From: Candidatus Parcubacteria bacterium
GTDB taxonomy: Bacteria > Patescibacteriota > Minisyncoccia > Phycocordibacterales > UBA918
Direction: 5' to 3'
DNA length: 64,000 nucleotides
Assembly: GCA_046050355.1 (NCBI GenBank)
Contig: JBJOPW010000001.1
Coordinates: 67,858-131,857, forward strand
Below, piece by piece: positions 3,099 to 60,636 of the stretch; the first letter of the stretch is position 1; each line of letters begins with the position of its first letter. The notes beneath the pieces were generated by a model, which ran no database searches, was not told where the DNA came from, and saw only the letters and a list, made by a program, of their open reading frames with translations. Made by a program: the position numbers and the translations under genes.

Positions 3099-3107
3099 AA
3101 TTGGTCT

Positions 3108-3136
3108 ACTATAGCGGGAGAATCTCACTGTGGCAA
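3108..3136 (-). promoter_or_regulatory. Sigma70-like promoter TTGCCA-N17-TATAGT, 9 nt upstream of the tgt ATG
   Basis: Minus strand: TTGCCAcagtgagattctcccgcTATAGTagaccaattATG. No SD. Confidence 0.5.
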
Positions 3137-3203
3137 ACACACAAGTGACTACAAATCTGTATACGTAAAGTTGGCTCAAGCTCAAGCGCAATCAAAATGT
3201 CAC

Positions 3204-9206: not shown

Positions 9207-10167
9207 GGTCTTTAAGATCAGTATGCACACCATCACGAACATAAACGGGTAACGACTCATTATCTCCAGGTTCATGGTGGTGCCGGTTCTTATAAATGTA
9301 CAGAAGTGTCAGGAGTATACTCCCTCCCATAACCATAGCGAAGATAATCAGAATGGTTTGTAGTGGTACTACAGTAAAAAAAGTTGTGTCATAAAGGTTT
9401 GCTCGCTGTAATGTGCCGTATTCAACATCCAAAAAGGCTTTATGGCGTCCGTACATACCACTACGAGGTACTTCACCTCTAAACGGCGCCCGTTCGCCAG
9501 CAGCCAGTACTTTACCTTCATTATTTACTGCAATACTAGCTACCTCTCTTCCCCGCACGTCGTACACAATAATCTCGCCCTGTGGTTTGATCGGCAGGTC
9601 GCCGATGTTTTCTAGTTCGTAACTGACCGGAATAGTCTCGCCACTCGTTACATAGCGATCAATTATAAAATTATTAAGCCGCATATATTCGCTGCGCACA
9701 TCAGCCATCGAAATCCGCATGGTTACCCCAGGAGCCCGACCGCTCATAACCGCCGCTTCTGCTTCGTCTCGTTTATCACCATTACCAAAGCCGACAAAAG
9801 CGTAGTAATCACCTTGGACGGCATTTGGGTTTATTGTTAAGGTCACCGGGATTTTGACTGATTCGCCGGGTTGCAATTCCACTCGAGCTCGTGATACGGC
9901 AATCCAACTAGTCACATTGGTCGTTTGGTCCGTCATCACGGGTGATTCAAATGTCTTGATTGAACCATCTTCACCAAGGGTAATCGGATGAACGGACGGG
10001 AAAATTTTTACTGGCACGGTACCGGTATTGGTAATCTTAATCGTGTCTTCCAGAATATCCCGTGGCTTAACTTTGTGTTCGATAACTGGTGGCGTGACTG
10101 TATATGACTGAGCTGAAGCAATCAGAGGTGTTGTCAGTAAGCAAAATGTAAGAAAAATGTAACGCAT
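9181..10167 (-). CDS. Two-beta-sandwich surface protein with C-terminal TM anchor (DUF916/DUF3324-like, WxL-locus-type architecture)
   Basis: Signal peptide MRYIFLTFCLLTTPLIASA; ITNTGTVPVKIFPSV, VELQPGESVKIPVTLTI, YELENIGDLPIKPQGEIIVYD; C-terminal TM ILIIFAMVMGGSILLTLLYIY. Confidence 0.55.
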   Translation of the reverse strand: MRYIFLTFCLLTTPLIASAQSYTVTPPVIEHKVKPRDILEDTIKITNTGTVPVKIFPSVHPITLGEDGSIKTFESPVMTDQTTNVTSWIAVSRARVELQPGESVKIPVTLTINPNAVQGDYYAFVGFGNGDKRDEAEAAVMSGRAPGVTMRISMADVRSEYMRLNNFIIDRYVTSGETIPVSYELENIGDLPIKPQGEIIVYDVRGREVASIAVNNEGKVLAAGERAPFRGEVPRSGMYGRHKAFLDVEYGTLQRANLYDTTFFTVVPLQTILIIFAMVMGGSILLTLLYIYKNRHHHEPGDNESLPVYVRDGVHTDLKDHDINLKKN

Positions 10168-10173
10168 AAGATT

Positions 10174-13100
10174 TTAGTAAACAGGAACGGCTATATAGAC
10201 AATTTCGGTGGTATAACTAGCGGCTGGTTGCATCCCAGTCACCTTTACTCTATATACAATATCATGGCTGTCATTGGCTGGTAATGGACTATACATAACT
10301 TCAGCCACATCAGTATGGAGACCAGCATAACTATCAAGCGGAGCAAATCGCGTAGAACCACCCGTGAGCGTTGCATCTGTTGTATGGTAGCCGACACAAC
10401 CAGATGCGGTAGTGATACAACCAACCGCCCAAGCAGCCGGCACAGCATTAGTTCCGGTGACGGACGGGATTGGTGTCCCATAGCCATTTTGTAACTGCTG
10501 GCGCGCAAAAGACAGCACTCGGTAGCCATCAGTAGCATTAGTGGTGACCGCCAACCGGTGAGCTGCCACCGCATCAGTGTCAATTGGTATTGAACCGAAG
10601 GTTACCGTTGCCGGGGTAGTGGCTACCGTCGTAACTACACCAGCAGTCGTCGTACCACTTGGAAGTCCACTAATACTCAGTGTCAATTTTGGTGTCTCTG
10701 CAACAAGACTTGGGTATGATTCCCCGCTTGCTGGCGCAACCGGTGCGTCTTCAAAGACTTCGTAGAGTCTGAAGTAGTACACTGCCCCCGCCCGAGCAGC
10801 TGCATGACGGAGGTAAAAGGCAAATTCAGTCGACGCACCGGCTAGATGGGTGTACCCAGTCGTATAGGTTGGCGACTCGTTGTGTGTACCACAACCACTG
10901 CCTGTACCACCCGTACAGCTGTTAGCATCAGTCAGCACTTTAGTGGTAATAGTGGCATTATCAGTACCACCACCGTCGACATAACACCACGTTGAGGTGG
11001 CCGTACAAGCTGCTTGCGTCACGACATCTTTTGGCGACGTAAATGTTGGCGACTCGTCGTATTGGAGTTTAAATTTTATGTCTTGGCCCACCACATTTTT
11101 TCGTTGACCAACCGTAACGCGTAAAGTAAATTCATTTCCATTTTGTACCTCAATTGGTGAAATAATTTCACCAGAAAGTGGACTAAGGGGGGTTTCGCTT
11201 TCAGCATCATCATAAAAGCGCCAACGTTTTGTTTGTGGTGAATAGCCGGCTGTGCGGATTTGCGGGTAGTTAAAATAACCGTCTAATGGTGTACCGTCAC
11301 TCCGTACCATACGGAAACAGTAGGTATTACGTGAGATTGCACCATTGTGTTGAATAAACCAATCGTATTCTACGTCTTCACCCGGATCAACAATATAAGG
11401 GTTAGCTGGTGCCGGATTTTCTTCAACTAAACTACCAGCTCGATCAGCTACCGAAATTAACAAATCGCCTCCGGTTGGCGGGTTGGTACTTAAATTTGTA
11501 CCGTTTGTTGTCCCTGTGGCAGCGTACCCTCGCCAGATACCACTACCAGCCGCAGTGTCAAGATCACTCCAGGTACCAACGGTCGAACAGGAAGTAGCAC
11601 GCAATCCATACTGCAACTTAAAATCATACAGACCAGCCGGTAGGTTTGCGTTGGCTACCCGTAACGTCATGCGTAGTCGCACCAGGTCACCATCTCCGAG
11701 TGGTTCGTCGGCAATTGTAATGGGGTTGTTTTCACCCAAATCTGAGACACCAACCGGCCATGGGTCGGTGGGCTTCAGGGCATTATTATTAACATAGAAC
11801 CGATAGTAATTTTGACGAACAGCGAGTCCAGAAACTGGCCATTCCACAATTTCGGTACGATACGTCATTTCCCCTGAGGCTTCACTGCGCCACAGTTCAT
11901 AGGTGGACGTGCTCGTAATACGAGCACCGGCCATTGGTAAGGGAAAGGTCGTATTAGCCCCCACGACGCGGGTATTAGCAAATATTGATGCATTGTTTGT
12001 CGCTTCAATTGGTGAGAAGATTGAGATTGATAACGCTACTGGCTCAGTACCGGCGTTGGTCGTTCCATTTGTTCGTTGTACCTCCATAGCACCGGCACTG
12101 GTCTGCAGGTTTTCAATAATCCAAGCCACTGAAGTATGTCCGCTCGGTGCAGTAGCAGCGCCCTCAAGTCGGTATGATACGGCGCCAATACTCGACAGCC
12201 AAACTTCGTGGCCAAAGTTGTTGACGTTGCCTTGAGCGGTCATGCGTTTTTGTGTGTGTATAAACGAACGCGCTAAACTATTGAGCGTTGTTGGTATTGA
12301 TTCTGTTTCTACGGTTCCAACTGCAGTATACGTATGTTCACTTCGTTGCACCTGCCAATTAATGCCGGTAAATTCAACCACGGCATAGCTCACATTGATA
12401 ATAGCCCCACCGGCTCCACGATTAAAAACGGGTGCCGTACTGGTGGGACTCCAACTTGATGTTACTTGCCCGGCATAATACACGTTACGCGCAACATCAC
12501 GGTTCTCAATACCAGTTATAAAGACCACCACATCAGTATTATCGGTAATGGTACCAAGGGCAGTGCCGGTGGCTATCAAGGCGGCACTCGCCATATTGAC
12601 ACTCCCCACCCCTCTTACCTTCATTTCATTGTCGGTGCCAGCATCCCCAATAAACTCAACGATTTCCCAGTTCACCCGTGTATTTCCGGTGGCAGCTGGT
12701 GGCCGAGAAATGGTAAAATTGCTCGGTAAGTTAGCCGCCGAAATGTACGCGGTGATATCATCGGCATTTTGCGCTCCTCCACCAGCTGTCGTGCGTCCCG
12801 GCCCAGTGTTGTGGGTGTCAGTGAGACGGACAAAGGCAGTCGTTGTGCTCGCTGGAGCAGTATAGTCAACACCAGCGGTTAGCGTTTGTGACGTACCGGC
12901 GATGGTAGCAGTGCCACGCTGCACTTTAAAATCACGCTTGGGAGCAGTGGTTAGTTCTGCATAGTTACTATAGGTTAAGGGTTCTCCATTATTGGTGAGT
13001 CTAAAGCAATACGTAGTATTATAAGCAGTAATATTGGTAGAGGTAATACTAAATTCATACTCAGCAAATTCAGTTGTACTCATGACCAGAGCAGAGGTAG

Positions 13101-16100
13101 TACTCGTGGTATCACGTTGGCCGGCATTTGCGACAATAAAGGTTGGATTTGGGTCGGTAACACCCCCGTTTGCAACCGCAATATTGGTAGTGTTGTTACC
13201 GTTGGTGAGATTAGTGCTATCAAACATATTCCAGTCATCAGCACTATCGCCAACCGGTGTCCACACACTCACCGCACTACAGGTAGTCACGCGCGGTCCA
13301 AATTCAAGGCGATAGGCGGTTGCAACAGAAGCAGCCGCACCTTCGTTTGAAAGTGCCAGGCGTAGTCGGATTGGTGTATTGGCAGGGTGTTCTGTCAGGA
13401 GGACATTTTCTGACCCACCTGTAGCTGAAGTTGCTGTAGTTTCAGACCCATTGTCGTTACGCCAATGGTAACCATTTTGGGTAATCACTGGTCCTGAAAG
13501 CGTGGTGGTACCGTTAATTGCTATCGGTGTAGATGGTGATACCGATCCAGCCGAGACACCGATATCATTAGCGGGTGAAGAAATTTCTATTTGCACGGTG
13601 TCACCATTGCTAGCCGCAGCGGTAACATCAAACACCACATAAAGACAAACGGTCTGTGTGGTTGTTACGGTCACCGAGCCACTAAACGTTGATGTACCAT
13701 TTTGACTAGTAAAGCCATCAGTATCGGTGCTACCAAATTGCGTTTCTGATCCACCATACGATTCACTGGCACAATCGTACGGAGCGGTGGTGTCTAAATC
13801 ATATCTAAGCACTATGGTATCTAAGTGATTCTGTGCATCAACAGTGCCATTCTCAGCTATCATAATATTGGTAATATTTCGACTACTGGTGTTTTCACGA
13901 AAGACAAACTGGCCGCCGACATGTTGATTTGTAGATGGCACCAAGAGCGATGCTGTCTGACTACCTAAAGCGGTCACACTGACATCAGCGGCAATGGTGA
14001 CACTTGGGAATTGTGAATATACGGGTAAGGGGGTGCCAGCATTAGTAACACGAAAACAGTACGTTGTTCCCTCACTCGCTGAGGTTGATGCAACAATGGC
14101 ATATTCTAATTCAACAAAATTAGTGTTCGTTAGCGTTAAAGAGCCAGTTTGTGAAGAGACTTCGCGCAAGCCACCATTGGGGGTTAAAAATGTCGTGTTT
14201 TCGTCGGCCACACCACCAGTACCCACTGCAATATTAGTAGTATCTCCCCCTTCGGTAATATTTGCAGATAACGACATATTCCAGGCATCATCGGCTGCCC
14301 CGACATCAGTCCAACTCGTGGTGTCATTACAGGTCGGGGCTGCTACCCCATACTCCAAACGAAATGTTGATGCGGCGCTAGATAGTGAGCCTTCGTTTGA
14401 TACCTGCACGCGCAGGCGACGAGGGTTATTCGGCAACAGTGCAGCGATTGGTGTATCAGCTACTCCGCCGGTCGCAGATGAGGCGGTAGTTTCTGTACCG
14501 TTATCGTTACGCCAGTGGTAGTGCGTTTGGGTAAGTTCATCATTTTGAATCAGTGATGATGAAGCCATACGCACTGGAGATTCAGGCATTACCAGCACAC
14601 CACCAGTGACAATCACGTCATCATTAGGAGCTTCAACTGAAACTGACAACGTATCACCATCAAGGGCAGCTTCTAGTACATCGAGCACGACGTAGAAGCA
14701 CATGGCCTGTGTCGTGGTGATAGACTGTAAGCCAGAAAAACTCGAAACCCCATTAGCGCCAGAAAATCCATTAGTGTCTGTAAGTCCATACTGAGATTCA
14801 GTGCCACTATATGATTCACTGACACAGTCATAGGGGGCCGAAGTATCAAGGTCATAAAACAATTTCACATTGCTCACCGCAGTACTACCATTAATACTGC
14901 CACGCTCGTTAACGACTACAGCGGTCACATTCCGACTACTTTGGGTTTCTCGAATTGCAAACTTGCCGCCGACATAGACATTATTGGTACCGGCGGTGAT
15001 AACACTGGTCGCTGTACCGGTTGCATACAATTTTGTAATCGGTGCGATATCAGCAAGCGTATCACCAAAATAATCATCTGGTGCTGGGTCAGTCCAACTC
15101 ACATAGATGCGCTCATCACTCATGAGATTGATATCAAGACCACGATGGTCGCCAGCAGTCACACCCGAGACGGTTCGCTCAGGACTCCAGGTTGACATAG
15201 CAGAAGTTGAAGTCGCCCAGTAGATACCTCCGGTCGTGGCTGTCGCCGGTGTCGACCGTAGTACATAGGCAACATAAACAGTACTGGTATTGATATCTAA
15301 TCCAATCGCAACCGTATTAAGACCACGTGTTGTATTCGTAAATACTGCAGTTGTTCCAGTCCATGAACCGGATGAGAACTTAGCCGTACGAACATCATGA
15401 TCAAGTGTAGTATACGTGTCATGATCAGCACCATAGGCAAGATACACATCACCGGAGTTTGGGTCAACAACAGCCGCCATACTGGTATCGTACGTAGCAC
15501 TCTCAACGGCTGCCCCATCAATAGTAGTCCAACTGGCTGACCAAGCTGATCCATTCCATACACGTGACTGAATCACGTTTAAACTAATGTCACGGTTTAT
15601 AAGGAGTACATTGCCATTAATAAGTGGCAACAATATATTCCAATCATTATCAAGATCCATAAAACGCGCACCACCCGGCTCACTCCAGCCAGTAGTGGCG
15701 GTGCACCCCGTGTCAGTATCGCAACTCACCACAAAAGAATCAGCGGCATCTGAGATACCGATAAAAACTTCGTTACCAGCATTTTTTGTGACCGTGAGGT
15801 TGTTAGTACCCGATACGTAGGTGCCGGCCTGACTTGAGTTGGTACTCGCGTTCACTGGAGCAGTACCGAGGAGGAGAGTGTCGGTACTGGTATCAAGCGC
15901 ATTATAAAATACATGGTCGGGGTTTGAGGCCGTTTCCATTGTTGCTATATGAATCGTGCTCCCAAAGTCGCCGGGTGTCCACTGGTCATACCACACCGCA
16001 ATACTCGAACAGTCAGTTTGGGCATCTACAATCACTGGTGTATTCCAGACCGTACCACCGTTTGTAGTCTTACTATACACACAACTACCAGAGAGATCTC

Positions 16101-16335
16101 GGTAAAACTTGTACCCCACCTGATCAGAAGTGAACACCGTTTGGGAGCCACCGAAGAAAAATGAGTTGGCATCGGTACTCACCGTAGCATCAATGGTATT
16201 TTGGGCAGCTTCGGCCATAGTCGGCCAGGCCATATACTCCAAAAACGTGAAGTTGAGAAAAAACATCACAGCTAACATGATGCCAGCAATCAGTCGACGC
16301 CATCCATACCAAAAAAACGCTGGAAACCTCCGCAT
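10174..16335 (-). CDS. Giant secreted surface protein (2,053 aa): N-terminal anchor, WNGSAW-type repeats, repeated YxWRxDxG beta-sandwich modules, WxL-like C-terminal module
   Basis: Uninterrupted 6.2-kb ORF starting at an ATG. YHWRNDNG(T/S)ETTA occurs twice; also RWRFYDDAESE and YCFR(V/L)TN. C-terminus ...SYTTEIVYIAVPVY. Confidence 0.85.
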   Translation of the reverse strand: MRRFPAFFWYGWRRLIAGIMLAVMFFLNFTFLEYMAWPTMAEAAQNTIDATVSTDANSFFFGGSQTVFTSDQVGYKFYRDLSGSCVYSKTTNGGTVWNTPVIVDAQTDCSSIAVWYDQWTPGDFGSTIHIATMETASNPDHVFYNALDTSTDTLLLGTAPVNASTNSSQAGTYVSGTNNLTVTKNAGNEVFIGISDAADSFVVSCDTDTGCTATTGWSEPGGARFMDLDNDWNILLPLINGNVLLINRDISLNVIQSRVWNGSAWSASWTTIDGAAVESATYDTSMAAVVDPNSGDVYLAYGADHDTYTTLDHDVRTAKFSSGSWTGTTAVFTNTTRGLNTVAIGLDINTSTVYVAYVLRSTPATATTGGIYWATSTSAMSTWSPERTVSGVTAGDHRGLDINLMSDERIYVSWTDPAPDDYFGDTLADIAPITKLYATGTATSVITAGTNNVYVGGKFAIRETQSSRNVTAVVVNERGSINGSTAVSNVKLFYDLDTSAPYDCVSESYSGTESQYGLTDTNGFSGANGVSSFSGLQSITTTQAMCFYVVLDVLEAALDGDTLSVSVEAPNDDVIVTGGVLVMPESPVRMASSSLIQNDELTQTHYHWRNDNGTETTASSATGGVADTPIAALLPNNPRRLRVQVSNEGSLSSAASTFRLEYGVAAPTCNDTTSWTDVGAADDAWNMSLSANITEGGDTTNIAVGTGGVADENTTFLTPNGGLREVSSQTGSLTLTNTNFVELEYAIVASTSASEGTTYCFRVTNAGTPLPVYSQFPSVTIAADVSVTALGSQTASLLVPSTNQHVGGQFVFRENTSSRNITNIMIAENGTVDAQNHLDTIVLRYDLDTTAPYDCASESYGGSETQFGSTDTDGFTSQNGTSTFSGSVTVTTTQTVCLYVVFDVTAAASNGDTVQIEISSPANDIGVSAGSVSPSTPIAINGTTTLSGPVITQNGYHWRNDNGSETTATSATGGSENVLLTEHPANTPIRLRLALSNEGAAASVATAYRLEFGPRVTTCSAVSVWTPVGDSADDWNMFDSTNLTNGNNTTNIAVANGGVTDPNPTFIVANAGQRDTTSTTSALVMSTTEFAEYEFSITSTNITAYNTTYCFRLTNNGEPLTYSNYAELTTAPKRDFKVQRGTATIAGTSQTLTAGVDYTAPASTTTAFVRLTDTHNTGPGRTTAGGGAQNADDITAYISAANLPSNFTISRPPAATGNTRVNWEIVEFIGDAGTDNEMKVRGVGSVNMASAALIATGTALGTITDNTDVVVFITGIENRDVARNVYYAGQVTSSWSPTSTAPVFNRGAGGAIINVSYAVVEFTGINWQVQRSEHTYTAVGTVETESIPTTLNSLARSFIHTQKRMTAQGNVNNFGHEVWLSSIGAVSYRLEGAATAPSGHTSVAWIIENLQTSAGAMEVQRTNGTTNAGTEPVALSISIFSPIEATNNASIFANTRVVGANTTFPLPMAGARITSTSTYELWRSEASGEMTYRTEIVEWPVSGLAVRQNYYRFYVNNNALKPTDPWPVGVSDLGENNPITIADEPLGDGDLVRLRMTLRVANANLPAGLYDFKLQYGLRATSCSTVGTWSDLDTAAGSGIWRGYAATGTTNGTNLSTNPPTGGDLLISVADRAGSLVEENPAPANPYIVDPGEDVEYDWFIQHNGAISRNTYCFRMVRSDGTPLDGYFNYPQIRTAGYSPQTKRWRFYDDAESETPLSPLSGEIISPIEVQNGNEFTLRVTVGQRKNVVGQDIKFKLQYDESPTFTSPKDVVTQAACTATSTWCYVDGGGTDNATITTKVLTDANSCTGGTGSGCGTHNESPTYTTGYTHLAGASTEFAFYLRHAAARAGAVYYFRLYEVFEDAPVAPASGESYPSLVAETPKLTLSISGLPSGTTTAGVVTTVATTPATVTFGSIPIDTDAVAAHRLAVTTNATDGYRVLSFARQQLQNGYGTPIPSVTGTNAVPAAWAVGCITTASGCVGYHTTDATLTGGSTRFAPLDSYAGLHTDVAEVMYSPLPANDSHDIVYRVKVTGMQPAASYTTEIVYIAVPVY
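12990..15090 (-). repeat. Tandem in-frame duplication (~1.05 kb, ~350 aa per unit) inside the 2,053-aa gene
   Basis: The anchor sequence encoding YHWRNDNG sits at 14497-14520 and 13447-13470 (1,050 nt apart). The flanking protein segments align, for example LFYDLDTSAPYDCVSESYSG with LRYDLDTTAPYDCASESYGG. Confidence 0.75.
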
Positions 16336-19477: not shown

Positions 19478-21193
19478 TTAGCGAGTTAAGGTGGTTACGT
19501 CTGATACTTCTTTTTGTACAATTTGCTCTGCTGATTTTAACACGGTTCTTATATCTGTAATAAGGGCACCTTCGGTCGCTGTCAATTTACCGGTTTTGCG
19601 GCTACGAACAATATCCGCTTCGTGTGCATGCAGCAGTTCTTCAATAACAATAAATTGGGCATGAAGCGCAGTACCAACTTCACTACTTTCACGGTTAAGG
19701 AGTACCCGGAAGCGGCGATACCGTGCCAAGAAGTAAAAACTGCCGAGGGTAGCCAGTACGAGCAGGGCAATCAGTGGAATAATGACCGAGAGCACATCAA
19801 TCAAGAATGAACCGATTCGTACGAGACCCATAGGTTGTACAACAAATTGGACGGGGTCAGAAATACCACTTTGCGCACCAAACTCATCATGTGCAGCAGC
19901 CGTGAGGGCATAGACGCCTTCAGTGAGAGCGCTGTTCGGGATAAAACGAAACGTACCTGTTTCGTCACTCTTTACCTCGTAGATAGCTGGCTCTTGTCCA
20001 GTCTTCGTGAGGGTTACGGCGACTGTAGCATTTGGTCTTGTGGTACCAAGGAATACTGGGATGACACCGGTACTGATCTCGGTTGGCACATCGCTAAAGC
20101 GTGGTGCTTCAAATGATTCAATCTCGAACGTAAAGGTTGAGACCGTGCTGTTGCCGGCGGCATCAACCACTTCTACCACCATTGTTTGGCGACCGGGAGT
20201 CAATTTCTCGAGTTTTATTTCATTTTTACCTTCTTCATTTTTGTACTCAACTGGTGCAGCGCCATTGAGTTGTACCCTAAAGACTTTAATTGGTGAGCCA
20301 TTGGTATCAGTAGTTGATGCTACGACAATTTGTGTCGGATTCGCCAGATTGCTATCGGGTTTGAGGCTCAACACCACATTTTGGGGAGCGTTAGTATCAA
20401 CCCCGAGACGATAGTGCGCTACCTTGCCCCACCCCTCGGCATTTTTGAATTGGATATGGAAATACGATACCCCTTCATCGAGATCAGCAAGGGTAATCTC
20501 TTTGATAGGACTATCATAGACTTTGGTTGGTATGGCAGTCGGAGATTCATCAAGTGCGGTTCGTACAGCGACTACATCTCCCGGTAGTGTCCAGCGGAGA
20601 ATAGCGGTCTTGTCTTTTGACCAGCCGGCTGGGTCGCCATGGGTATCGGAGGTTATCTTTGGAGCCGCTGGTGTATTGGCTGGTGGTACGTATTCAACAA
20701 TGGTTTCGGGGGCTGGGGTCTCAGTGGCAGCAGAGATGGTATACGCACCACTCCCCATACTCGAGAGCACATTGGTCCCGCGACCATCAGCCGCTAGAAC
20801 AGAGCCACTACCAAAGGTGACACGCGCTGCTCCAGATCCCAGGGTGCGGAAGGTGATGTTCATCACTGTTCCTGACCCACCAGTGTAGCCGGTCGGCGTA
20901 CCACCGCTAAAGTTAATCGTACCAGCACTATTAGAGTAGGTTGGTTCGGTGGTCCAGAGATTAAAGATTGAACTACTGCGGGAAACCGACACTACCTGAA
21001 GCGCTTTATTATCAAAATTAATCGTGCCATCAGCGGCATTAATGGCAGCTCCTTTAGTATCAACCGCCACGCGCACAGTAAAGGTACTGCCGCTGCCATA
21101 GACACCAGTAGCTGGTGACATATTGAGAGTGGCCGCTAGAGCGAATGAACTAGAACCAAAGAGCGCAAGTAGTATAAGGAGACGACTAAACAT
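19478..21193 (-). CDS. Cohesin-like surface protein with Ig-like domains, C-terminal TM and a ~100-aa cytoplasmic helical tail (paralogue of 56211-57755)
   Basis: ATLNMSPATGVYGSGSTFTVRVAVDT...LWTTEPTYSNSAGTINFSGG...VLAADGRGTNV. Start set to the ATG at 21193 (MFSRLLILLALFGSSSFALA), right after the upstream stop. Confidence 0.65.
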   Translation of the reverse strand: MFSRLLILLALFGSSSFALAATLNMSPATGVYGSGSTFTVRVAVDTKGAAINAADGTINFDNKALQVVSVSRSSSIFNLWTTEPTYSNSAGTINFSGGTPTGYTGGSGTVMNITFRTLGSGAARVTFGSGSVLAADGRGTNVLSSMGSGAYTISAATETPAPETIVEYVPPANTPAAPKITSDTHGDPAGWSKDKTAILRWTLPGDVVAVRTALDESPTAIPTKVYDSPIKEITLADLDEGVSYFHIQFKNAEGWGKVAHYRLGVDTNAPQNVVLSLKPDSNLANPTQIVVASTTDTNGSPIKVFRVQLNGAAPVEYKNEEGKNEIKLEKLTPGRQTMVVEVVDAAGNSTVSTFTFEIESFEAPRFSDVPTEISTGVIPVFLGTTRPNATVAVTLTKTGQEPAIYEVKSDETGTFRFIPNSALTEGVYALTAAAHDEFGAQSGISDPVQFVVQPMGLVRIGSFLIDVLSVIIPLIALLVLATLGSFYFLARYRRFRVLLNRESSEVGTALHAQFIVIEELLHAHEADIVRSRKTGKLTATEGALITDIRTVLKSAEQIVQKEVSDVTTLTR

Positions 21194-21194
21194 A

Positions 21195-22223
21195 TTAGTT
21201 AATTTCAGTGACCTCAGCCTCGGCACTCACCGCGGAAGCCTGCTTTTGGCGGCGGCGTCGACGCCAATACCAGACTCCAGCGAAACTGAAGAGGACAAGC
21301 GCTACTCCAGTGGCTGCAGCCACTGCCAGCGTTATTGGTGAAAAGCGACTGATATGAGCGTTTTGTGGGGCCAAAGTAGCAATGTATTCATTCCCCGCTT
21401 TATCAACGGCGCGCACGCGGATAGTACTCTTGAGTGACTGATCAGTGAGCACATATGGACTGCGTCCTTCCGTCCACACTGTTGTGGCCGCACCAAAGGT
21501 AAAGAGTCTCGTGTCCTCAACCGGTTCTTCGATTACTTCATAGTGACTCATGCCACTTTGTTTGTCGGTAGTGTTAAAGACAATATAGTACTTCTTTTCA
21601 AAAGCATAGTCGTCTTTCTCGAGGGTAATAGAAAATTCTTCGGGCGGGATATCATCATCTGCAACAACATCTCGCCACTCATCGATAATAGTAGACCCAA
21701 CAACTTGATTGAGCGTCAATTCTGCCCCGAGTGTTTGGAGCGCTGCTTCAGTCCCAAAACCATCATTCAAAAAGGCGCGTGTTTCTGGATTAAATGTCAC
21801 CGTTCCAAAGGGAGCGACCTCCCCACCACCAACGGTGAGACCGGGAGCACGAAATACAATCTGGAGTAGTGTATTAGTGAGTCTCGGATCACCATCAACA
21901 CGCCCACAATAGCCATTTGGAATACCGCCAGCAAATGAGATGGTGCGTGCATTTTTGTCAATCACTGGCTGTTCCACCCAAATTGGAAATATTGACTGGC
22001 CAATTGAAATATCAACCGGATTTATAGCCTCGTTGTAACTAATCACCCCATCAATAGCATTAATACATTCATCTTCAGCTTCGTTCGTATCTAGTCGCAC
22101 TGAGAGTGTCACTGAATCACCACGATTAAGTGTTGGTCGCGGCGGGTCAAGGTACAAGGTGGCTGCTGACACGGAATCAGCCACCAAAAACATACACAAA
22201 AAGAGAACGAGTCGGTAGACCAT
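21195..22223 (-). CDS. Cohesin-like surface protein with Ig-like domain and C-terminal TM anchor
   Basis: AATLYLDPPRPTLNRGDSVTLSVRLDT...IDGVISYNEAINPVDISIG...ISFAGGIPNGY. TM LAVAAATGVALVLFSFAGVWYW followed by RRRRRQ. Start set to the ATG at 22223 (MVYRLVLFLCMFLVADSVSA). Confidence 0.55.
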   Translation of the reverse strand: MVYRLVLFLCMFLVADSVSAATLYLDPPRPTLNRGDSVTLSVRLDTNEAEDECINAIDGVISYNEAINPVDISIGQSIFPIWVEQPVIDKNARTISFAGGIPNGYCGRVDGDPRLTNTLLQIVFRAPGLTVGGGEVAPFGTVTFNPETRAFLNDGFGTEAALQTLGAELTLNQVVGSTIIDEWRDVVADDDIPPEEFSITLEKDDYAFEKKYYIVFNTTDKQSGMSHYEVIEEPVEDTRLFTFGAATTVWTEGRSPYVLTDQSLKSTIRVRAVDKAGNEYIATLAPQNAHISRFSPITLAVAAATGVALVLFSFAGVWYWRRRRRQKQASAVSAEAEVTEIN

Positions 22224-24570: not shown

Positions 24571-25677
24571 CTACCCGGTCCAGTTGAAGAGGAGGATTGA
24601 GAAGTCTTCAAGTCCAACCTTCCCATTACTATTGATATCCGCCGGCGGGTTTGAGTCACCGCCATTAGTACTCCACCAGAAAATGAGAATAGAAAAGTCG
24701 GTTAGATTAACCTTACCATCACGACTGAGGTCAGATGGCGAGCTGGGTGCGCCATCGACGCCTAAAAGCAGCTGCACGACACTACTATAACCACTTTGGG
24801 TCAGTAGTGGTGGTGTGCCAGTAATAGAGCGAACTTTGATTGGATAGGTGGCATTACGGAGACTCGCCGTATTGAGCGTATAGCTGTAACGACCACTAGT
24901 GTCACTGGTCGTTCGTTCGGTGCGAAGACTACTGTTCCCTACCTGGATTTCGATCGCAGCACTCGGGACTGCCTGTCCAGAAATCGTAACTGTTCCGCCA
25001 GGACTGACTTTAGTATTTGATAAGGCTAAGGTCGGCGGCAACAAAAGGCCACTGACATTTGTTACGGCGCCTTGAGTCACATCAAAGGTACTATTGAGCG
25101 TGATAGAGCGTACCCCCGTCGAGTCATTCGCCCACACACCCATGGTAGCGGTTCCTGGCGACGCTTTGGTCGAAAATTCAAAACGACCGGTACTATTAGC
25201 TCGTACGGAACCGACAGACTTGGTATCAAGAAGAAAATTAACTTGCTGATTTGGATACGCAATACCAGTAATACTGATTGACGAATCACCAAGATCGCGG
25301 GTACCACCGCCACCTCCTCCACCGCCAGATGATCCACCGCCGCCAGAACCAGCCGGTTCTATTTGACAGGTAGCCGAACAAAAATCACCACCGGTGTTAT
25401 TCGCATCGTCACACTCTTCTGCATAAGTAGTCTGCAAAATACCATCACCGCAGTATGGTCCATAGTCACAGACAGCATTGCATTGTCGCCCAGCAATGGT
25501 GGTACTGTAGAGACCAATTTCACCAGGCACATCGCACTGTTCCCCGACATCGATGAGTGCGTTCCCGCAGATACTCAAATCAATAGTGGTTGTTGCTGTT
25601 GAAATAGTGACAGCGAGTACTTCGTGTGGCATAACACCAAGCGAAGCGACGAAGAGGAGGAGAGCAGCAAGGCGCAT
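24571..25677 (-). CDS. Secreted protein: Cys-rich repeats (Myxococcus cysteine-rich-repeat-like), Gly linker, two Ig-like domains, C-terminal dockerin
   Basis: CGNALIDVGEQCD...YCGDGILQTTYAEECDDANNTGGDFCSATCQIE; GSGGGGSSGGGGGGGG. Dockerin DLSRDGKVNLTDFSILIFWW...DINSNGKVGLEDFSILLFNW. Confidence 0.7.
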   Translation of the reverse strand: MRLAALLLFVASLGVMPHEVLAVTISTATTTIDLSICGNALIDVGEQCDVPGEIGLYSTTIAGRQCNAVCDYGPYCGDGILQTTYAEECDDANNTGGDFCSATCQIEPAGSGGGGSSGGGGGGGGTRDLGDSSISITGIAYPNQQVNFLLDTKSVGSVRANSTGRFEFSTKASPGTATMGVWANDSTGVRSITLNSTFDVTQGAVTNVSGLLLPPTLALSNTKVSPGGTVTISGQAVPSAAIEIQVGNSSLRTERTTSDTSGRYSYTLNTASLRNATYPIKVRSITGTPPLLTQSGYSSVVQLLLGVDGAPSSPSDLSRDGKVNLTDFSILIFWWSTNGGDSNPPADINSNGKVGLEDFSILLFNWTG

Positions 25678-26722: not shown

Positions 26723-28600
26723 TTACCAACTTAATGGATTTGAGATTGCACCAGTGAAAGTGTTTTGTCCGGTGTATGATCCAGCGAGGGTGATCGTACC
26801 TGGTACCGCAATACCCCAGTAGGTTGTACCTGATGTTGGTGTCGAGGTCGCAGTTGGTTTTGGAATCTGAATCTGTAACGTTGCCGGTGACGTAGTTGGT
26901 TGAAGCGCTGCACCAGAGGCATAGGCAACCGCAGAAGTAGCATACCGCTGCTCACCTTGTGGAATTGTCGACGTGGCAGAAACTGGGCAAGGGTTAGTGG
27001 TACTAAAGGTCGTACACATAGACTCACCACCAAGGAGTTGATTAAGACCAGTGTTACCAAGGACTCGTAGTGATGACGATGAAGTCAAGTTTGGCATGTT
27101 TGTCCCCGGCTCAAGCTGATCGTACGCAATGGTACTCGTCAGGAGATCAATGGCCACGAGACTCAAGAGTTCTACCGGACTGGTGGTAGTCGCCATGGTA
27201 CCAGTGGCATTATCATCATCGACACCAGCTACACCAGCACTCCAAGCCTGCGTATCAAATGGTGTTCCAGAAACAGTTGGATCAGCAATGAACCAGAGTG
27301 GGAAGGAACATGAGTAACTGATCGTATCGTCAGTGTTGCCGGTACACGATGTTGTGGAAGCTGTACATGAAAGGTTCCAAACTGAAGCAGCTACTCCACT
27401 TGGATAACAGTTGTTTGCATTGTAAGCTCCAGCTGATCCATCACAAGTTGTTGTTCCAACCGCACTACGGAAGATAGAGACCACCGAACGCTGGATTTCA
27501 TCAGCCGCACCGCCACCAACCGCATCACAACTGTTAGCATCAGCCACCACAAAATCAAGCGTAAAACCTGTTGTTTGTGAACCCGGCACTGTAAGCACTA
27601 TATCAAGTCCACCATTAAGAGAAATGGTACCACCGGCCACTGTTGGTGCGACGTTGCTGACTTCAAAGGTAACGTTTGTACCTTGTGCACCACCTGATGC
27701 TTCGTGACCGTGCTCATCATAAAGATACGCAAATGCGTTGTAGTTAGTGTCCTGAAGAATAGTAGCCATTACTCGCGAGGTGGTGGCGTTAGCAAACGCA
27801 ATCGAGAGTGATGATGAAGCAACAGTATCACCGGCGCCACAACTGTTCGTACTGGTACTATATGAAGCCGAACCACAAACTACCAGGTAAAGTGCGTCAT
27901 CAGTATCTACAACGTCTGGGTCAGTAGAGGTTGATCTAAAGAGTAGTGTACCGCCTGGATTAACTGGACCATCATTACTAAACCCAGTGAAAACTGGTCG
28001 ACGATTCACATTAAATGGTGACGAGTTCGTCGCATTTGTACCCTGTGAGAAAGTGGTACTACAACGGGGGTTTACCGGATCATCGTCACACACCCAGGCG
28101 TACCAGTCGTTTGATTCAGCAAAGGGCGCAACTTCTACGGTCGTGGTGGCAGCACGGGCTTCAGTGCCACTTGGCGTGCCCGTAGAAACCGCCCAGCGTG
28201 TACCAGCACTACAGACAGGAGCCGCAGTACCTAAGGTGGTTGTCGACTGTTGAGCAGTTGGGGTGGCGTTTGTACTACACACAATGAGGAAGTATGGTGC
28301 ACCGTTGGCATCGCTTGCTGTTCCGACCCAAGCTACTTGATCACCTGAGTTCGTTGGCGAGGTTGAAGATGAGCTGATTAACTCACGACCCTCTTGTCCA
28401 GCCACCCAGGTTGGCGGCGTGTTAAGTACGGTCAACGTGGTCGTTGCAGTACTGGTCGCTTCGGCCTTTTCAAGCTCAGTTTTACCAATGTTAAGAATAA
28501 AGATGAAGGTAAAAATGAGCAACCCTGATAATGCTGATAATACGGTGATTTTCCCAGCGGTCTCTACATACCGTGGAAAGTTATTTTTGTTGTACAACAT
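26723..28600 (-). CDS. Secreted surface protein (625 aa), Thr/Ser-rich with Cys pairs; C-terminal module shared with the 7,456-aa protein
   Basis: N-terminal anchor ITVLSALSGLLIFTFIFIL. The C-terminus IAYDQLEPG...LGNTG...IPKPT...TYWGIAVPG...SYTGQNTFTGAISNPLSW parallels INYGSLAPQ...ANAGN...LSKPT...IFWGIEVPFG...GINVFTPVSP. Confidence 0.7.
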   Translation of the reverse strand: MLYNKNNFPRYVETAGKITVLSALSGLLIFTFIFILNIGKTELEKAEATSTATTTLTVLNTPPTWVAGQEGRELISSSSTSPTNSGDQVAWVGTASDANGAPYFLIVCSTNATPTAQQSTTTLGTAAPVCSAGTRWAVSTGTPSGTEARAATTTVEVAPFAESNDWYAWVCDDDPVNPRCSTTFSQGTNATNSSPFNVNRRPVFTGFSNDGPVNPGGTLLFRSTSTDPDVVDTDDALYLVVCGSASYSTSTNSCGAGDTVASSSLSIAFANATTSRVMATILQDTNYNAFAYLYDEHGHEASGGAQGTNVTFEVSNVAPTVAGGTISLNGGLDIVLTVPGSQTTGFTLDFVVADANSCDAVGGGAADEIQRSVVSIFRSAVGTTTCDGSAGAYNANNCYPSGVAASVWNLSCTASTTSCTGNTDDTISYSCSFPLWFIADPTVSGTPFDTQAWSAGVAGVDDDNATGTMATTTSPVELLSLVAIDLLTSTIAYDQLEPGTNMPNLTSSSSLRVLGNTGLNQLLGGESMCTTFSTTNPCPVSATSTIPQGEQRYATSAVAYASGAALQPTTSPATLQIQIPKPTATSTPTSGTTYWGIAVPGTITLAGSYTGQNTFTGAISNPLSW

Positions 28601-28708
28601 ACTAAATACCTATATATTGTATCGGATAAAGGCCTGAGTTATGCACTAGTTATGCACAGTAAGCAACCTCTGTGACAGCTGGTGAGTTTTAGTCACTGCG
28701 ATAATTTT

Positions 28709-28734
28709 TAAAAAAGACGAGGTCGGACCTCGTC
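28709..28734 (-). terminator. Intrinsic terminator (GACGAGG-family palindrome, copy 4) closing the tandem RNA array
   Basis: Minus strand: GACGAGGTC-c-GACCTCGTC followed by TTTTTTaaaaatt. The plus strand has no T-run after the hairpin, which sets the orientation. Confidence 0.7.
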
Positions 28735-28790
28735 CTTAGGGGCACCAAGAAACTAAAGTTCCTCAAATAAAGTGAGCGTCTGGTGGCCAA

Positions 28791-28935
28791 GAGACGTGGA
28801 CTGGGCCATTAGGGATAGTGAGAAATGGGGTGGGACCCATTTCTCAAGACTCATTGTGGATATTTGTGAGTGATAACGAAACAAATAGCCCAATGAGTGG
28901 ACAGCCTCTGTAAGAAGTCAGCTCACGGAAATTCG
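28791..28935 (-). ncRNA. Unclassified structured RNA motif, copy A (strand inferred from the downstream terminator)
   Basis: Helices: cgtggactg/cagctcacg, gagaaatggg/cccatttctc, actcattg/caatgagt, tatttgt/acaaata. No ORF. The helices covary with copy B. Confidence 0.55.
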
Positions 28936-28969
28936 TCAGGTAAGCATAAAGAGAGTGTGCGGTAGCTGT

Positions 28970-29111
28970 GAGACGTGGACTGGGCCATTAGGTGAGAAAA
29001 CGTGGGACGTTTTCGCAAGACTCATTGCGTAATTTTATGAGTGGTAACGAAATAAAATTGCCAATGAGTAGACAGTTTCTGTAAGAAATAGGCCCAGCTC
29101 ACGGAAATTCG
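28970..29111 (-). ncRNA. Unclassified structured RNA motif, copy B
   Basis: Helices: cgtggactgggcc/ggcccagctcacg, gagaaaacg/cgttttcgc, actcattg/caatgagt, aattttat/ataaaatt. Loops tggga and gagtgRtaacgaa are conserved with copy A. Confidence 0.55.
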
Positions 29112-29231
29112 CAATAGTCGGCGAAGAAGATTCAAGAAACATAGTGATTCGGCCTAGAAAAGACATTAGGAATAGTCTTCTCTAGGTAAGTTCGCAATAG
29201 TCGGCTTGCGCTTCGTTTGCTCACTTAATTT

Positions 29232-30440
29232 CTATTCATAGCGAATCGCATCCAGTGGATTTAGAGACGAAGCCCGACGGGCTGGGAAGATTCCAGTCAA
29301 GTACCCCACCGCCGCTGAGAAGAGAGCAATAAATACGAGGAAGCCAATCGGGAAAGAAAAGAGCTTCACTGCCTGCCCGCCAAATTGCCCCGCCACAATA
29401 TTCAAAAAGACATTGATGGTCACCCCTAAACCTACCCCCATCACGATGCCACTAATACCGCCAAGGAAGCCTACTACCACCGACTCTGACACGAAGAGGT
29501 ACTTCACATCATTTGGTGAGGCCCCAATCGTACGCATAATACCGATCTCTTTGGTACGCTCAAGGAGGGTCACCGTCATGGTATTGAACATACCAATGGC
29601 TGACACTACTAGCGCAATACCACCGAAGGTAGCAAGTACGATCTGAATTCCTTGAAAGATTTTGGAAGCTTGCTCCACGGTCTTTGAGAGTGCTGTCACC
29701 CGGTAGCCAGCGTCGATAAGTTTATTTTCTACAATCGGTAAATTCTCGTTGGTATCAACGCGTACTTGAATCCGTTCAAATTCTTCAATACCGACATAGT
29801 TGCGTAGTTCAGGCAACATCATCATCGCATTAAGGACACCTTCCTCTTTGGTAATGCCACGAACAGTGTATTCCTTATCAATAATGACTTCAGTGTTGTT
29901 GTTAGTCCCATCATTAGCCGGAATCAAAATACGAAATGATACTTTTTCACCAACAAAGGTGGCTGGATCATCAACTCCAAACAGCTTTAGTACGGCTGGC
30001 GAAAGCATCACAGAATTCGTATCACCAGCGTCAGCATCGGTAAAGACAGTGCCTTCAGTGGCCGATACGCCGGCATACCGCAGATAAGGTGGCTCCACAC
30101 CTTGAATAAAGACGTTCCCGGTGAGACCTTTGTAGGTGACGAGAGCCGGAAAGCGAGCGAGCGGAGCGGCGTCGAGTACCTCAGGCATATTTTCAAAATC
30201 AGCCACGGTCTCGGTGGTCAATTTTAGGTTTTGCGCACCAGTAGCTGAGACACCGAGCGACAAAAGGGTCTCACCAAACACGATCTGTTCTAGAATGATT
30301 TGCTGCAAACCAAACCCAAGACCAACGAGAATCACCACGGCCCCTGTCCCCACACCCATACCCAAAATCGTGAGCCACGTACGAAGCGGGTTGGTTTTGA
30401 ACATACGCGTCGAAAGCTGCGCCAGATCCTGAACTCGCAT
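29232..30440 (-). CDS. ABC transporter permease, FtsX/MacB-type (4 TM plus large extracytoplasmic domain)
   Basis: FKTNPLRTWLTILGMGVGTGAVVILV at the N-terminus; C-terminal LERTKEIGIMRTIGASPNDV...FPARRASSLNPLDAIRYE. The ORF-track start at 30461 is a TTG inside the promoter-like box, so the ATG at 30440 is preferred. Confidence 0.85.
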   Translation of the reverse strand: MRVQDLAQLSTRMFKTNPLRTWLTILGMGVGTGAVVILVGLGFGLQQIILEQIVFGETLLSLGVSATGAQNLKLTTETVADFENMPEVLDAAPLARFPALVTYKGLTGNVFIQGVEPPYLRYAGVSATEGTVFTDADAGDTNSVMLSPAVLKLFGVDDPATFVGEKVSFRILIPANDGTNNNTEVIIDKEYTVRGITKEEGVLNAMMMLPELRNYVGIEEFERIQVRVDTNENLPIVENKLIDAGYRVTALSKTVEQASKIFQGIQIVLATFGGIALVVSAIGMFNTMTVTLLERTKEIGIMRTIGASPNDVKYLFVSESVVVGFLGGISGIVMGVGLGVTINVFLNIVAGQFGGQAVKLFSFPIGFLVFIALFSAAVGYLTGIFPARRASSLNPLDAIRYE

Positions 30441-30577: not shown

Positions 30578-31900
30578 CTAACTTTTGTAACTAACATCTA
30601 CCCCTTGTGCAATCAACTTTTCAAAGTAACGAGTCATGTCATCAGCCTCCTTCTCAGACAAAGAGAGACCTTTGCTCCGGATCCCTTCCATTAATCGTGT
30701 ATTAAAGTCTTTCTCTTCGACGACACCAGTCACTCGGTCCGCCACTAGTTCAACGAGGTTAGCATCTTGCTCTTTACTAAGCTTCATACGGTATACCTCT
30801 TGGAGGTGATCACGGAGTCGCTCAGCGAGTTTATGTTGACTAAAGAAAACACCGGCATTGTCCTTCTTGGCACGAAAACGGCGAATATCATCTGATTGTT
30901 CAATCAATTTTTCACTCCGTTTGGCCATATCTTTGGCTACCGACTCTGGCACCTCCACTCCCCCGCGTTCTAATGGCAATACAAGTGCATTTATAAAGGC
31001 GTCGCGATCAATTTTGCCTTTAATGAAGAAACCAACCGCACGTTCAAGTCGTTGGATTTGGTCAAAGGTGTAGTCTTGTGTGAGGTAGTTTACAAGACTT
31101 TTTACCCGCAGAGTTTCTACCGAATCATACGGGAAGAGTCGTGCCAGCTGCTCGAGTTCAGTCACAATCGTCTCCCCTTCACGTACTGGCTTAATCTGTT
31201 TACGTTGCGGGTTGACCACTTCGCGCACAATAAAGCCATCTTTGAGATAGTACACCCGGTGCGCATACGAAAGATGCGCAGCGTTGTGTGACACCATAAT
31301 AATGGTACGACGGTCAAAGGTGTTAATTTCGTCAATTTTATCCATTACTTGCTGAGTCGAAATCGAGTCAAGGTTACCGGTTGGTTCGTCCGCCAGAAGA
31401 ATCTTTGGATCATTCACCATACTCCGAGCTACTGATACACGCTGTTGCTGTCCACCGGAGAGCATCGAGGGGATTTTGTGTGACACATGCCCTACCCCAA
31501 AACGATCGAGGAGCGATTGGGCTCGTCGATCACGGGTCTGTTTGTCGGCATTACAAAAAATCATTGGTAGAGCTACATTATCAAGCACCGACAGCGACCC
31601 AATGAGGTTAAACGACTGGAAGATAATACCCATCACGTAGCGCTGGAAGTACACACGTTCTGAAGGTGGATAGGAATAGATATCATCCCCTCGAATAAGG
31701 AGTGTTCCGTCTCCTGGTGGCAAAGAACCCTGAATTGAATACATGAGTGTCGACTTCCCTGACCCTGAGGCCCCGAAGAGAATGATGTACTCACCTTCAT
31801 AGATGTCCGTGTTCACATTTTGGAGCGCACGAAATTCGTTACTCTTGCCTTTATTATAAATAATCGACAAGTCACGACAAACAATCAGAGGCTTCGCCAT
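30578..31900 (-). CDS. ABC transporter ATP-binding protein (MacB/LolD/FtsE-like) with a ~210-aa C-terminal helical extension of unknown function
   Basis: [11 protein letters not shown] (Walker A), [15 protein letters not shown] (signature), [12 protein letters not shown] (Walker B), MVSHN (H-loop). Residues ~230-440 have no motif I recognise. Confidence 0.9.
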
Positions 31901-60570: not shown

Positions 60571-60636
60571 AGGTATATTGTACCTTGTGAGGATGAACAA
60601 AATGGGTGTTCTCCCACAGTTAAACAATGTTTGAAA

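Follow-up and report, generated by a model that had tools for sequence, protein, structure and literature searches.

What is a pair of adjacent, structured, apparently non-coding units doing between a permease gene and the gene of a 625-amino-acid (aa) protein? The question is raised by a stretch of 64,000 nucleotides (nt) from a Candidatus Parcubacteria bacterium (GenBank assembly GCA_046050355.1, contig JBJOPW010000001.1, positions 67,858 to 131,857), hereafter called the window. An earlier note on this DNA, made from the letters alone, described the units, A and B, as a tandem pair of a ~145-nt structured RNA motif and considered them a possible tandem riboswitch or attenuator of the gene of the 625-aa protein, taken as a surface protein, or a stand-alone small RNA. 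We find that each unit contains a conserved core of ~100 nt, that this core has many relatives elsewhere, and that the riboswitch interpretation is not supported by the comparison with related loci. In our best explanation, to which we give an even chance, the core is a dispersed, structure-constrained, non-coding element of the Paceibacteria that spreads, or has spread, by insertion and is then inherited.

Copies A (28791-28935) and B (28970-29111) lie where they had been placed. They share a 23-mer (GAGACGTGGACTGGGCCATTAGG, starting at 28791 and 28970), a 17-mer (CAGCTCACGGAAATTCG, starting at 28919 and 29095), and the loop GAGTGRTAACGAA, while their differences fall within helices. The exact 23-mer occurs twice in the 64 kilobases (kb), where 0.00 occurrences are expected. 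The period of 179 nt given for the pair is the upper end of a start-to-start spacing that ranges from 171 to 179 nt because of small indels, and the pair is not among the tandem repeats reported by Tandem Repeats Finder. The proposed helices P2, P3a, and P3b were recovered in both copies, by repeat listing and by folding. At least five compensatory pairs had been claimed, and we count around six double-sided changes between A and B (two in P2, three in P3b, and one in P4). Both copies fold far better than shuffled sequences on either strand (z from -4.5 to -7.1), with values of -4.7 and -5.7 for the minus strand of the array copies. Hence, the structured unit is real, but what is conserved in other loci is shorter than ~145 nt.

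We delimited the conserved part by BLAST of A and B against related loci (here numbered with the prefix L), followed by inspection. The core has the consensus RGG-UGAG-[P2]-CGCAAGAC-[P3]-GUGKACWG-[P4], where GUGKACWG stands for GUG(U/G)AC(A/U)G. The P2 loop is frequently RUGGGA, P3 is long and ends in an apex of the form GA-(short hairpin)-GAA, and P4 has three variable pairs, then a C-G pair and the loop UGUAA. The two cores of the window are the following:

28816-28917, plus strand: core copy A (covariance-model match 28813-28923, 111.5 bits, E 1.4e-24), made of UAG-UGAG, P2 at 28819-28846 (loop GUGGGA), AAGAC, P3 at 28849-28898 (apex GA-GUGAUAAC-GAA), GGACAG, and P4 at 28905-28917 (loop GUA/UGUAA).

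28990-29088, plus strand: core copy B (covariance-model match 28987-29094, 104.9 bits, E 5.9e-23), built like A except that P2 is shorter (loop UGGGA) and P3b differs in sequence.

A model search of the window with the filters off revealed no further or degenerate core (next-best E = 0.19).

To assess how widespread the core is, we used a covariance model built from 11 MAFFT-aligned sequences (R1), whose E-values are rough. It gave 120 matches in 89 of 91 sources and none at the empty sites of L002 and L005; the 40 remaining metagenome loci were all positive and added 48 matches. Together, these searches place at least 168 copies at 129 loci, in genomes of Paceibacteria and in environmental metagenomes. 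A scan of metagenomes with a pattern of invariant positions had returned at least 120 stretches, with ~3 expected by chance according to our own estimate. In the genome collection a loop-based pattern returned 10 stretches, which is about our chance estimate. Five of them were confirmed by R1, all from Paceibacteria or uncultured bacteria, and the other five, from unrelated phyla, were rejected by it. The genome matches are titled Candidatus Paceibacteria or Paceibacterota. Another pattern for the genome collection, composed of the closing helix described in the earlier note and the P2 loop, had zero matches because that helix lies outside the conserved unit. Two pattern scans of viral contigs found no core and thus gave no evidence of a phage origin.

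The helices are maintained by compensatory changes across this family, as the earlier note would have it. In the alignment of the 120 matches, 96.4% of the paired cells can pair (68.2% when shuffled) and double-sided changes are found at 30 of the 30 pairs. The covariation score is 0.609 against 0.153 in shuffled alignments, none of 500 shuffles reaches the observed value, and sliding the partners by 1-3 columns gives at most 0.103. This alignment was fitted to the model; the same helices come out independently from MAFFT and RNAalifold on the 11 sequences. The pairs of the model are also those ranked highest by mutual information, which gave no pseudoknot or tertiary covariation. Outside the helices, its sole signal is a coupling between the P3a subtype and position K of GUGKAC. 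The limits of the core are sharp: conservation reaches to 3 nt before UGAG, is at background 4 nt before it, and stops directly after P4. In short, the core has an aptamer-like fold with covariation support.

Several other descriptions of the unit were tried and rejected. Pairing of the flanks into a general closing helix P1 has a mean of -11.2 kcal/mol, against -10.3 in controls. A small peptide (a Shine-Dalgarno-like AGGUGA with an AUG in P2) does not fit, since the AUG is lacking in many copies and the variation is pairwise compensatory. By sequence inspection only, we found neither the pseudouridylation pocket nor the 3-nt bulge of box C/D, H/ACA, or K-turn guide RNAs, and the boundaries are inconsistent for GU...AG intron-like ends.

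The motif had been reported as unrecognized, which agrees with the databases. Rfam 15 gave no match at the gathering score in the whole window and chance-level matches only in 28550-29300 (at most 18 bits, E of at least 2.7). In eight related loci it identified tRNAs alone, and in 15 others, at E of at most 1, it gave tRNAs, 5S, and unrelated weak matches, none on the motif. Neither a tRNA nor any other Rfam RNA is found within the 64-kb window. The searchable literature yielded no account of the motif; the only related paper there deals with group I introns located at position 35/36 in tRNAs of Patescibacteria.

The closing helix of the earlier note (CGTGGACTGGGCC / GGCCCAGCTCACG) pairs in both copies but lies outside the motif, being part of a second repeat, a hairpin family that we call H, with the consensus stem-AUUAGGAAUA-stem-GAAAUUCGCAAUAGUCGGC. 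In copy A the GGCC that forms the upper section of the 3' arm is missing. The partial third unit that had been suspected next to B is real: it is an entire hairpin that shares the 3' tail and lacks an insert. The window thus has three H units, and both cores sit in H loops:

28795-28945: H unit 1, enclosing core A; 5' arm CGTGGACTGGGCC at 28795-28807, loop ATTAGGGATA, 3' arm shortened to CAGCTCACG (28919-28927), tail GAAATTCG...

28974-29122: H unit 2, enclosing core B; arms of 13 nt at 28974-28986 and 29091-29103, 85% complementary, tail GAAATTCGCAATAGTCGGC (29104-29122).

29153-29205: H unit 3, without a core; arms at 29153-29164 and 29175-29186, loop ATTAGGAATA, tail TAAGTTCGCAATAGTCGGC.

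H units without a core are also found in L017, L021, and L107, and in L017 the counterpart of H unit 3 holds one. The hairpin shows covariation of its own (86.6% paired, double-sided changes at 9 of 12 pairs in 11 sequences). The core enters the loop after ...ATA in unit A and after ATTAG, 5 nt earlier, in unit B. When filled and empty H units are compared, any duplication is limited to 1-2 ambiguous bases. H unit 3 is more stable when folded as the minus strand (12 contiguous pairs, -23.1 kcal/mol) than as the plus strand (-21.2 kcal/mol). With its tail (29154-29210, plus strand) it gives a weak match to cow-rumen-4 (18.3 bits for a gathering score of 48.5, E 3.5), which is probably due to chance, though the hairpin-plus-tail shape is alike.

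The two units of the window have separate relatives. Core A is closest to the copy of L090 and to the outer copy of L017, and these are also the counterparts of unit A; over 136 nt, core B has 90% identity with the same-locus copy of the Paceibacteria genome L012, whose unit is the counterpart of unit B. Each type is closer to its same-locus counterpart in another genome than A and B are to each other. Judged by these similarities, A and B are two old unit types and not a recent tandem duplication.

If the pair were part of the leader of the downstream gene, one would expect it to be kept together with that gene. The ORFs (open reading frames) on both sides are all on the minus strand, and the features relevant here are:

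30578-31900, minus strand: ABC ATPase.

29232-30440, minus strand: MacB/FtsX-type permease.

28637-28657: AGTTATGCAC twice in direct orientation, repeating every 11 nt, at ~40-60 nt before the ATG of the next gene.

26723-28600, minus strand: 625-aa protein, with its ATG at 28600 and no Pfam match.

For the 409-aa ORF, the true start gives 402 aa. Among the permease homologues with 85-95% identity are proteins named after Parcubacteria, and the gene order is kept in the relatives: giant protein, fn3/phosphatase-like protein, ABC ATPase, permease, 62x-aa protein, ~316-aa protein, and DUF4215 protein. In contrast, the spacer between the permease and the 62x-aa protein varies. It has ~630 nt in the window, 76 nt in L002 (where the permease is 92% identical), and 80 nt in L005, the latter two without any match to the motif. 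In L003 it consists of ~520 nt of unrelated sequence, whereas L021 and L017 have related elements in spacers of 558 and 836 nt, respectively. The direct repeat (GTGCATAACT x2, window 28637-28657) is kept in L002 and is also present in L017 and L021; it is diverged in L003, and L005 has only a diverged repeat of ATAACT type. As it is conserved even when the spacer has only 76-80 nt, this repeat is probably an operator or promoter element of the 625-aa protein gene. The stretch between the permease stop codon and the repeat is accessory, since it is absent from the relatives with short spacers, and is filled by three repeat families: a palindrome described below, the H units, and the cores. Going by these relatives, the array appears to be dispensable for the operon, which argues against a conserved leader or riboswitch of the 625-aa protein gene.

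The rest of the family points in the same direction. The orientation of the cores relative to the flanking or downstream ORFs, and the distance to them, are mixed, so that there is no co-oriented, conserved class of downstream genes. No neighboring protein family recurs in more than four loci, and neither an integrase, a reverse transcriptase, nor TnpB recurs within 3 kb of the cores.

The neighbors that do recur are genes of stable RNAs. Within 400 nt of a tRNA gene we found 49 of the 168 copies, and 43 of these 49 are on the strand of the tRNA (binomial p = 6e-8). The identities of the adjoining tRNAs are varied. In L065, L056, L024, and L026, some copies end 3-31 nt before the mature 5' end of the tRNA. 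Such a gap leaves no space for a separate promoter, and these copies are therefore part of the tRNA precursor. An intact 5S gene in L049 (1532-1817) is followed after ~85 nt by a core in the same orientation. Wobble pairs agree with this orientation: we counted 61 G.U or U.G pairs against 28 A.C or C.A, which favors the strand shared with the tRNAs. This strand is the plus strand of the window, antisense to the operon, and the cores in the other two spacers of the operon in the relatives (L003, L014, L037, L017) are antisense to it too. We infer that the structure is selected on one strand, the plus strand of the window, and that the copies in the window are transcribed. The shared orientation with tRNAs could also reflect an oriented insertion mechanism.

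Some copies are also fused to pieces of these genes. Around 10% of the copies have tRNA-derived flanks, and in 11 of 120, P4 is followed by a T-loop-like sequence; the copies of the window have no such T-loop-like flank. We observed two layouts. The first consists of a tRNA, a terminator-like hairpin, an inverted tRNA 3' end, P2, an inverted T-arm, P3, P4, and a direct 3' end starting at T54. The second is its mirror, with a partial tRNA (positions 1-49 or 1-52) 5' of the core and an intact tRNA 3' of it. The inverted and direct copies of the tRNA 3' end are perfect over up to 24 nt and break at the border of T-stem and T-loop (G53/T54). They surround the core and the terminator-like hairpin in L042 (4620-4810), L056 (1-200, minus strand), and L029 (4690-5105, minus strand), and likewise in L083, L094, L061, L026, and L044. 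We derived no mechanism that accounts for the inversion. The core of L044 lies exactly between the T-stem and the T-loop of a partial tRNA copy. One might thus have expected an intron of intact tRNA genes, but none of 33,476 trial deletions of a core restored a tRNA that ARAGORN can detect across the junction. Hence, the hosts are fragments that lie beside intact genes. Neither the Rfam intron models nor these deletions reveal a group I intron in a tRNA. In L059 and L079, truncated 5S copies on the opposite strand run into the 5' end of the core.

A resemblance concerns the P4 loop itself. With its closing pair it reads CUGUAAG (loops at 28909-28913 and 29080-29084) and matches the anticodon loop of tRNA-Tyr in L083, CUGUAAA, at 6 of 7 positions. 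UGU is the recognition element of tRNA-guanine transglycosylase, and a gene for this enzyme lies in the window (1842-3191, minus strand). The likeness may be a coincidence.

Cores also occur in arrays and inside each other. Several loci have 3-4 copies, some of them on both strands. Head-to-tail arrays with a period of ~94 nt, whose units abut directly, are present in L029 (at least four units), L077 (three), and L094 (two). In L017 and L021 a core lies within the P2 loop of another core, and in L017 a second one lies within a P3 loop. The loci L007 and L014 are not homologous, yet the sequences of their P2 and P3 helices are nearly identical. As these helices are otherwise free to vary, this indicates recent copying between sites. 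The ends of the core (RGGUGAG and P4) are not inverted repeats, so the family lacks the combination of terminal inverted repeats and target-site duplication that characterizes miniature inverted-repeat transposable elements (MITEs). Some features may fit a non-autonomous element derived from IS200/IS605: hairpins near both ends, neither inverted termini nor duplications, an excess of G.T-type wobbles on one strand, and insertion in hairpin loops. The only 5' preference is RGG, possibly part of the element, and there is no defined target tetranucleotide. In several unrelated loci (L007 3150-3650, L015 1320-1820, L011 4100-4500, L097, and L102 12100-12500), the cores are flanked on one or both sides by a fourth module, ACUUAG-(hairpin)-CUUAGUGAYUNGUGACC(GAAUCCC), which points to a composite RNA of greater length or else to a further repeat family.

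The palindrome, the third family of the spacer, comes with a transposase-like gene. The earlier note had seen a minus-strand hairpin followed by U6 and ending ~105 nt before the ATG of the 625-aa protein gene. The hairpin is there at 28737-28713 (-14.7 kcal/mol, z -3.7), and the ATG at 28600 lies ~105-110 nt beyond it. The corresponding features are:

28737-28707, minus strand: 11-pair stem GACGAGGTC-G-GACCTCGTC followed by U6.

1159-1183, 1702-1724, 1774-1798, and 28713-28737: the four copies of the palindrome AAAGACGAGG-N5-CCTCGTCTTT, the last of which is this hairpin.

1214-1849, plus strand: transposase-like ORF of 211 aa, with palindromes that flank it or occupy its 3' end (region 1159-1849).

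A G+C-rich hairpin followed by a U tract is what defines an intrinsic terminator, and 28737-28707 looks like a putative terminator of the ABC-transporter operon. A simple terminator scan missed it, presumably because its unpaired center is below the minimum loop of 3 nt used by the scan. Exact GACGAGG-N5-CCTCGTC palindromes occur three times in the window, for 0.00 expected. The ORF matches the IS200-like Y1 family PF01797 of Pfam with 29.7 bits (cut-off 23) and the NCBIfam model REP_Tyr_transpos with 41.7 bits, which is below the cut-off of 80, and has the HUH-type motif NHYHLL. L102 has a homologue (9272-9784), and there another palindrome, TTTCCCACATGTC-N-GACATGTGGGAAA, stands on either side of the gene. 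A transposase gene flanked by its own palindromes is the classic layout of repetitive extragenic palindromic (REP) sequences and their REP-associated tyrosine transposases (RAYT). Here, a repeated palindrome that includes 28713-28737 flanks a single IS200-like Y1 gene, and the pair looks like a REP/RAYT system in a bacterium of the candidate phyla radiation. The core is of another kind, with three distinct hairpins and no overall dyad symmetry, unlike a REP palindrome or an inverted doublet.

Elsewhere in the window, nearly all genes are on the minus strand, including ORFs of 7456 aa (33751-56121) and 2053 aa (10174-16335). Several proteins with cohesin, dockerin, and Ig-like domains accompany them (19478-21226, 56211-57755, 58657-60627, and 24571-25677).

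How would an element of this type behave? Its structure, family, distribution, strand bias, nesting, arrays, and variation in presence are observed as described, and mobility, like any role of a Y1 transposase in it, would be a step beyond them. We propose that the element enters the single-stranded loops of existing hairpins, be they H units, the T-loops of partial tRNAs, or other cores. Insertion would take place preferentially in hairpin loops and next to, or into, the genes of stable RNAs, and movement would pass through a single-stranded DNA or RNA intermediate, possibly with the help of an IS200-type Y1 transposase like that of 1214-1849. The copies abutting tRNAs would be co-transcribed with them and hence exist as RNA released by tRNA processing. 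In the window, cores would have entered two of three tandem H units, in a spacer that may serve as a variable "repeat dump" between the permease gene and the promoter of the 625-aa protein gene.

Several observations weigh against an inserting element. We found no transposition event, excision footprint, target-site duplication, or terminal inverted repeat, and the RGG preference may itself belong to the element. The copy number looks low, with two cores in 64 kb and at least three in two 8-kb stretches of one 676-kb contig. The same-locus counterparts of A and B imply vertical inheritance with the structure kept, which fits a functional RNA too. The nucleotides of loops and junctions are highly conserved in all copies, as is typical of functional RNAs and not of decaying repeats. 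Finally, the transposase-like gene is not beside the cores, is present in only two other loci, and has a putative link to them. We hold only tentatively the stronger proposal that the core is a new structure-dependent mobile nucleic acid invading hairpin loops or, equally, a new functional RNA linked to tRNA operons. As a mobile nucleic acid, it could invade tRNA T-loops, 5S, other repeats, and itself, could make its closing helix from the target, using the inverted and direct tRNA 3' ends, and could be moved by a Y1 transposase acting in trans, with single-stranded DNA or RNA as the intermediate, or by its own catalysis. As a functional RNA, it could bind a conserved cellular factor through its invariant loops.

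The main rival to the inserting element is a multi-copy family of small-RNA genes derived from stable-RNA operons, an explanation that is compatible with it and that we find less likely. Such RNAs would be transcribed with a tRNA or 5S or from a promoter of their own, freed by RNase P or 3' processing, and act in trans, with the UGUAA, RUGGGA, and GA/GAA loops binding a protein, for instance; the window would carry two related genes on its plus strand. The copies that abut tRNA genes on the same strand and the one downstream of a 5S gene are what one would expect, as are the invariant loops and junctions, the covariation at all 30 pairs, the excess of G.U over A.C pairs, and the conservation of related copies at the same locus between genomes. 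Judging from the alignment, the P3 apex, GA-(mini-hairpin)-GAA, also resembles tandem sheared G.A pairs that are bound by proteins. A gene family of this sort does not easily explain why the element is missing at the same site in close relatives, why copies are nested in each other and inside truncated tRNA and 5S copies, or why those in the three spacers of the operon are all antisense to it. Nor is the unit consistently bracketed by a promoter and a terminator, and a simple scan of the plus strand of the window was unconvincing. The remaining RNA-based explanation of the whole family, a small catalytic or intron-like RNA that cleaves or splices itself and spreads by reverse splicing or through an RNA intermediate, seems to us highly improbable. 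The direct abutting of array units, the insertion exactly at the junction of T-stem and T-loop, and the conserved junction nucleotides would suit it, but there is no match to an Rfam ribozyme or intron, no deletion of a core restored a tRNA, and a reverse transcriptase was not found nearby.

Two further explanations place the function on the minus strand of the window. The mRNA of the ABC-transporter operon might contain the array as part of its 3' untranslated region, where the hairpins, both H and the reverse complement of the cores, would protect the 3' end or insulate the operon from the next promoter; transcription would stop at the terminator of 28737-28709. The minus strand folds strongly, H unit 3 even better than on the plus strand, and the array has the permease stop codon on one side and a good minus-strand terminator on the other, so that read-through on this strand is very likely. 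We nonetheless regard this as unlikely for the core, since the strand evidence (orientation with tRNAs and wobble pairs) is opposite and the relatives manage without the array. It may hold for the H hairpins, which would leave the core unexplained. That the leader of the 625-aa protein gene holds a tandem riboswitch or attenuator is scarcely credible, even if the succession on the minus strand of structured units, hairpin with U6, ~105 nt, and ATG resembles one, and even if tandem aptamers exist, as in glycine riboswitches. The orthologues of L002 and L005 do without the element, that of L002 keeping its promoter region with the direct repeat. There is no conserved downstream gene, the strand evidence again points the other way, and the elements lie upstream of the conserved promoter-region repeat and hence outside the leader.

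Whichever explanation holds, the element was previously unclassified, and annotation with Rfam 15 misses all of the at least 168 examples, although the covariation of the core is comparable in strength to that of accepted RNA families. To our knowledge, Paceibacteria and other bacteria of the candidate phyla radiation, whose genomes are tiny, have almost no characterized non-coding RNAs or repeat families. A mobile core would be a non-coding module that colonizes hairpin loops and stable-RNA genes of streamlined genomes, and could explain some of their variable intergenic DNA; a core that works as a functional RNA would be specific to this lineage and linked to tRNAs. In either case the covariance model is directly usable for annotating metagenomes. 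The locus also calls for caution, as adjacent covarying domains beside a gene need not be a riboswitch.

How does the core compare with known systems? The tRNA-linked repeats of tyrT in Escherichia coli, which give rise to the RtT RNA (RF00391), are units of ~178 bp that follow the tRNA, each with a copy of its 3' end, and are co-transcribed and processed. A subset of the cores is similar, being downstream of a tRNA on the same strand, sometimes in tandem, and ending in a direct tRNA 3' end from the T-loop. However, the core matches RF00391 neither in sequence nor in structure. Around 90% of the cores, including both copies of the window, where there is no tRNA, are devoid of a tRNA-derived flank. 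The family also has inverted tRNA-end copies and nesting, and sits on either side of genes. Hence, a minority of its members resemble tRNA-linked repeats, and those of the window do not. The likeness to tandem riboswitches of the glycine type is limited to two adjacent, similarly folded, covarying domains. The core differs from them in having neither a gene association nor a leader position, in lying on the strand opposite to its neighbors, and in being missing at orthologous loci.

Small repeats provide the closest parallels. Like REP sequences, their bacterial interspersed mosaic elements (BIMEs), and RAYTs, the short structured repeats of the window pile up in spacers and 3' ends as mosaics, beside a Y1 transposase-like gene with palindromes of its own, one of which is the "terminator". 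The core differs in being composed of three different hairpins with conserved loops and linkers and not of a palindrome, and it is far less abundant than the REPs of Proteobacteria; its link to the transposase is putative. ERIC, pneumococcal BOX, Neisseria Correia, Rickettsia palindromic, and miniature IS200/IS605-derived elements are likewise non-coding, ~100-150 nt long, dispersed, and variably present, some of them modular or nested and some transcribed within neighboring RNAs. The derivatives of IS200/IS605 share with the core hairpins near both ends and the lack of terminal inverted repeats and target duplications, whereas Correia elements and other MITEs have inverted termini or TA-type duplications that the core does not. 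We know of no tRNA 3'-end chimeras in any of these families. Compared with them, the core has unusually strong covariation, invariant loops, and no defined target tetranucleotide. By analogy, the core family thus appears to work most like the small structured repeats of bacteria, as a member of none of the families compared here.

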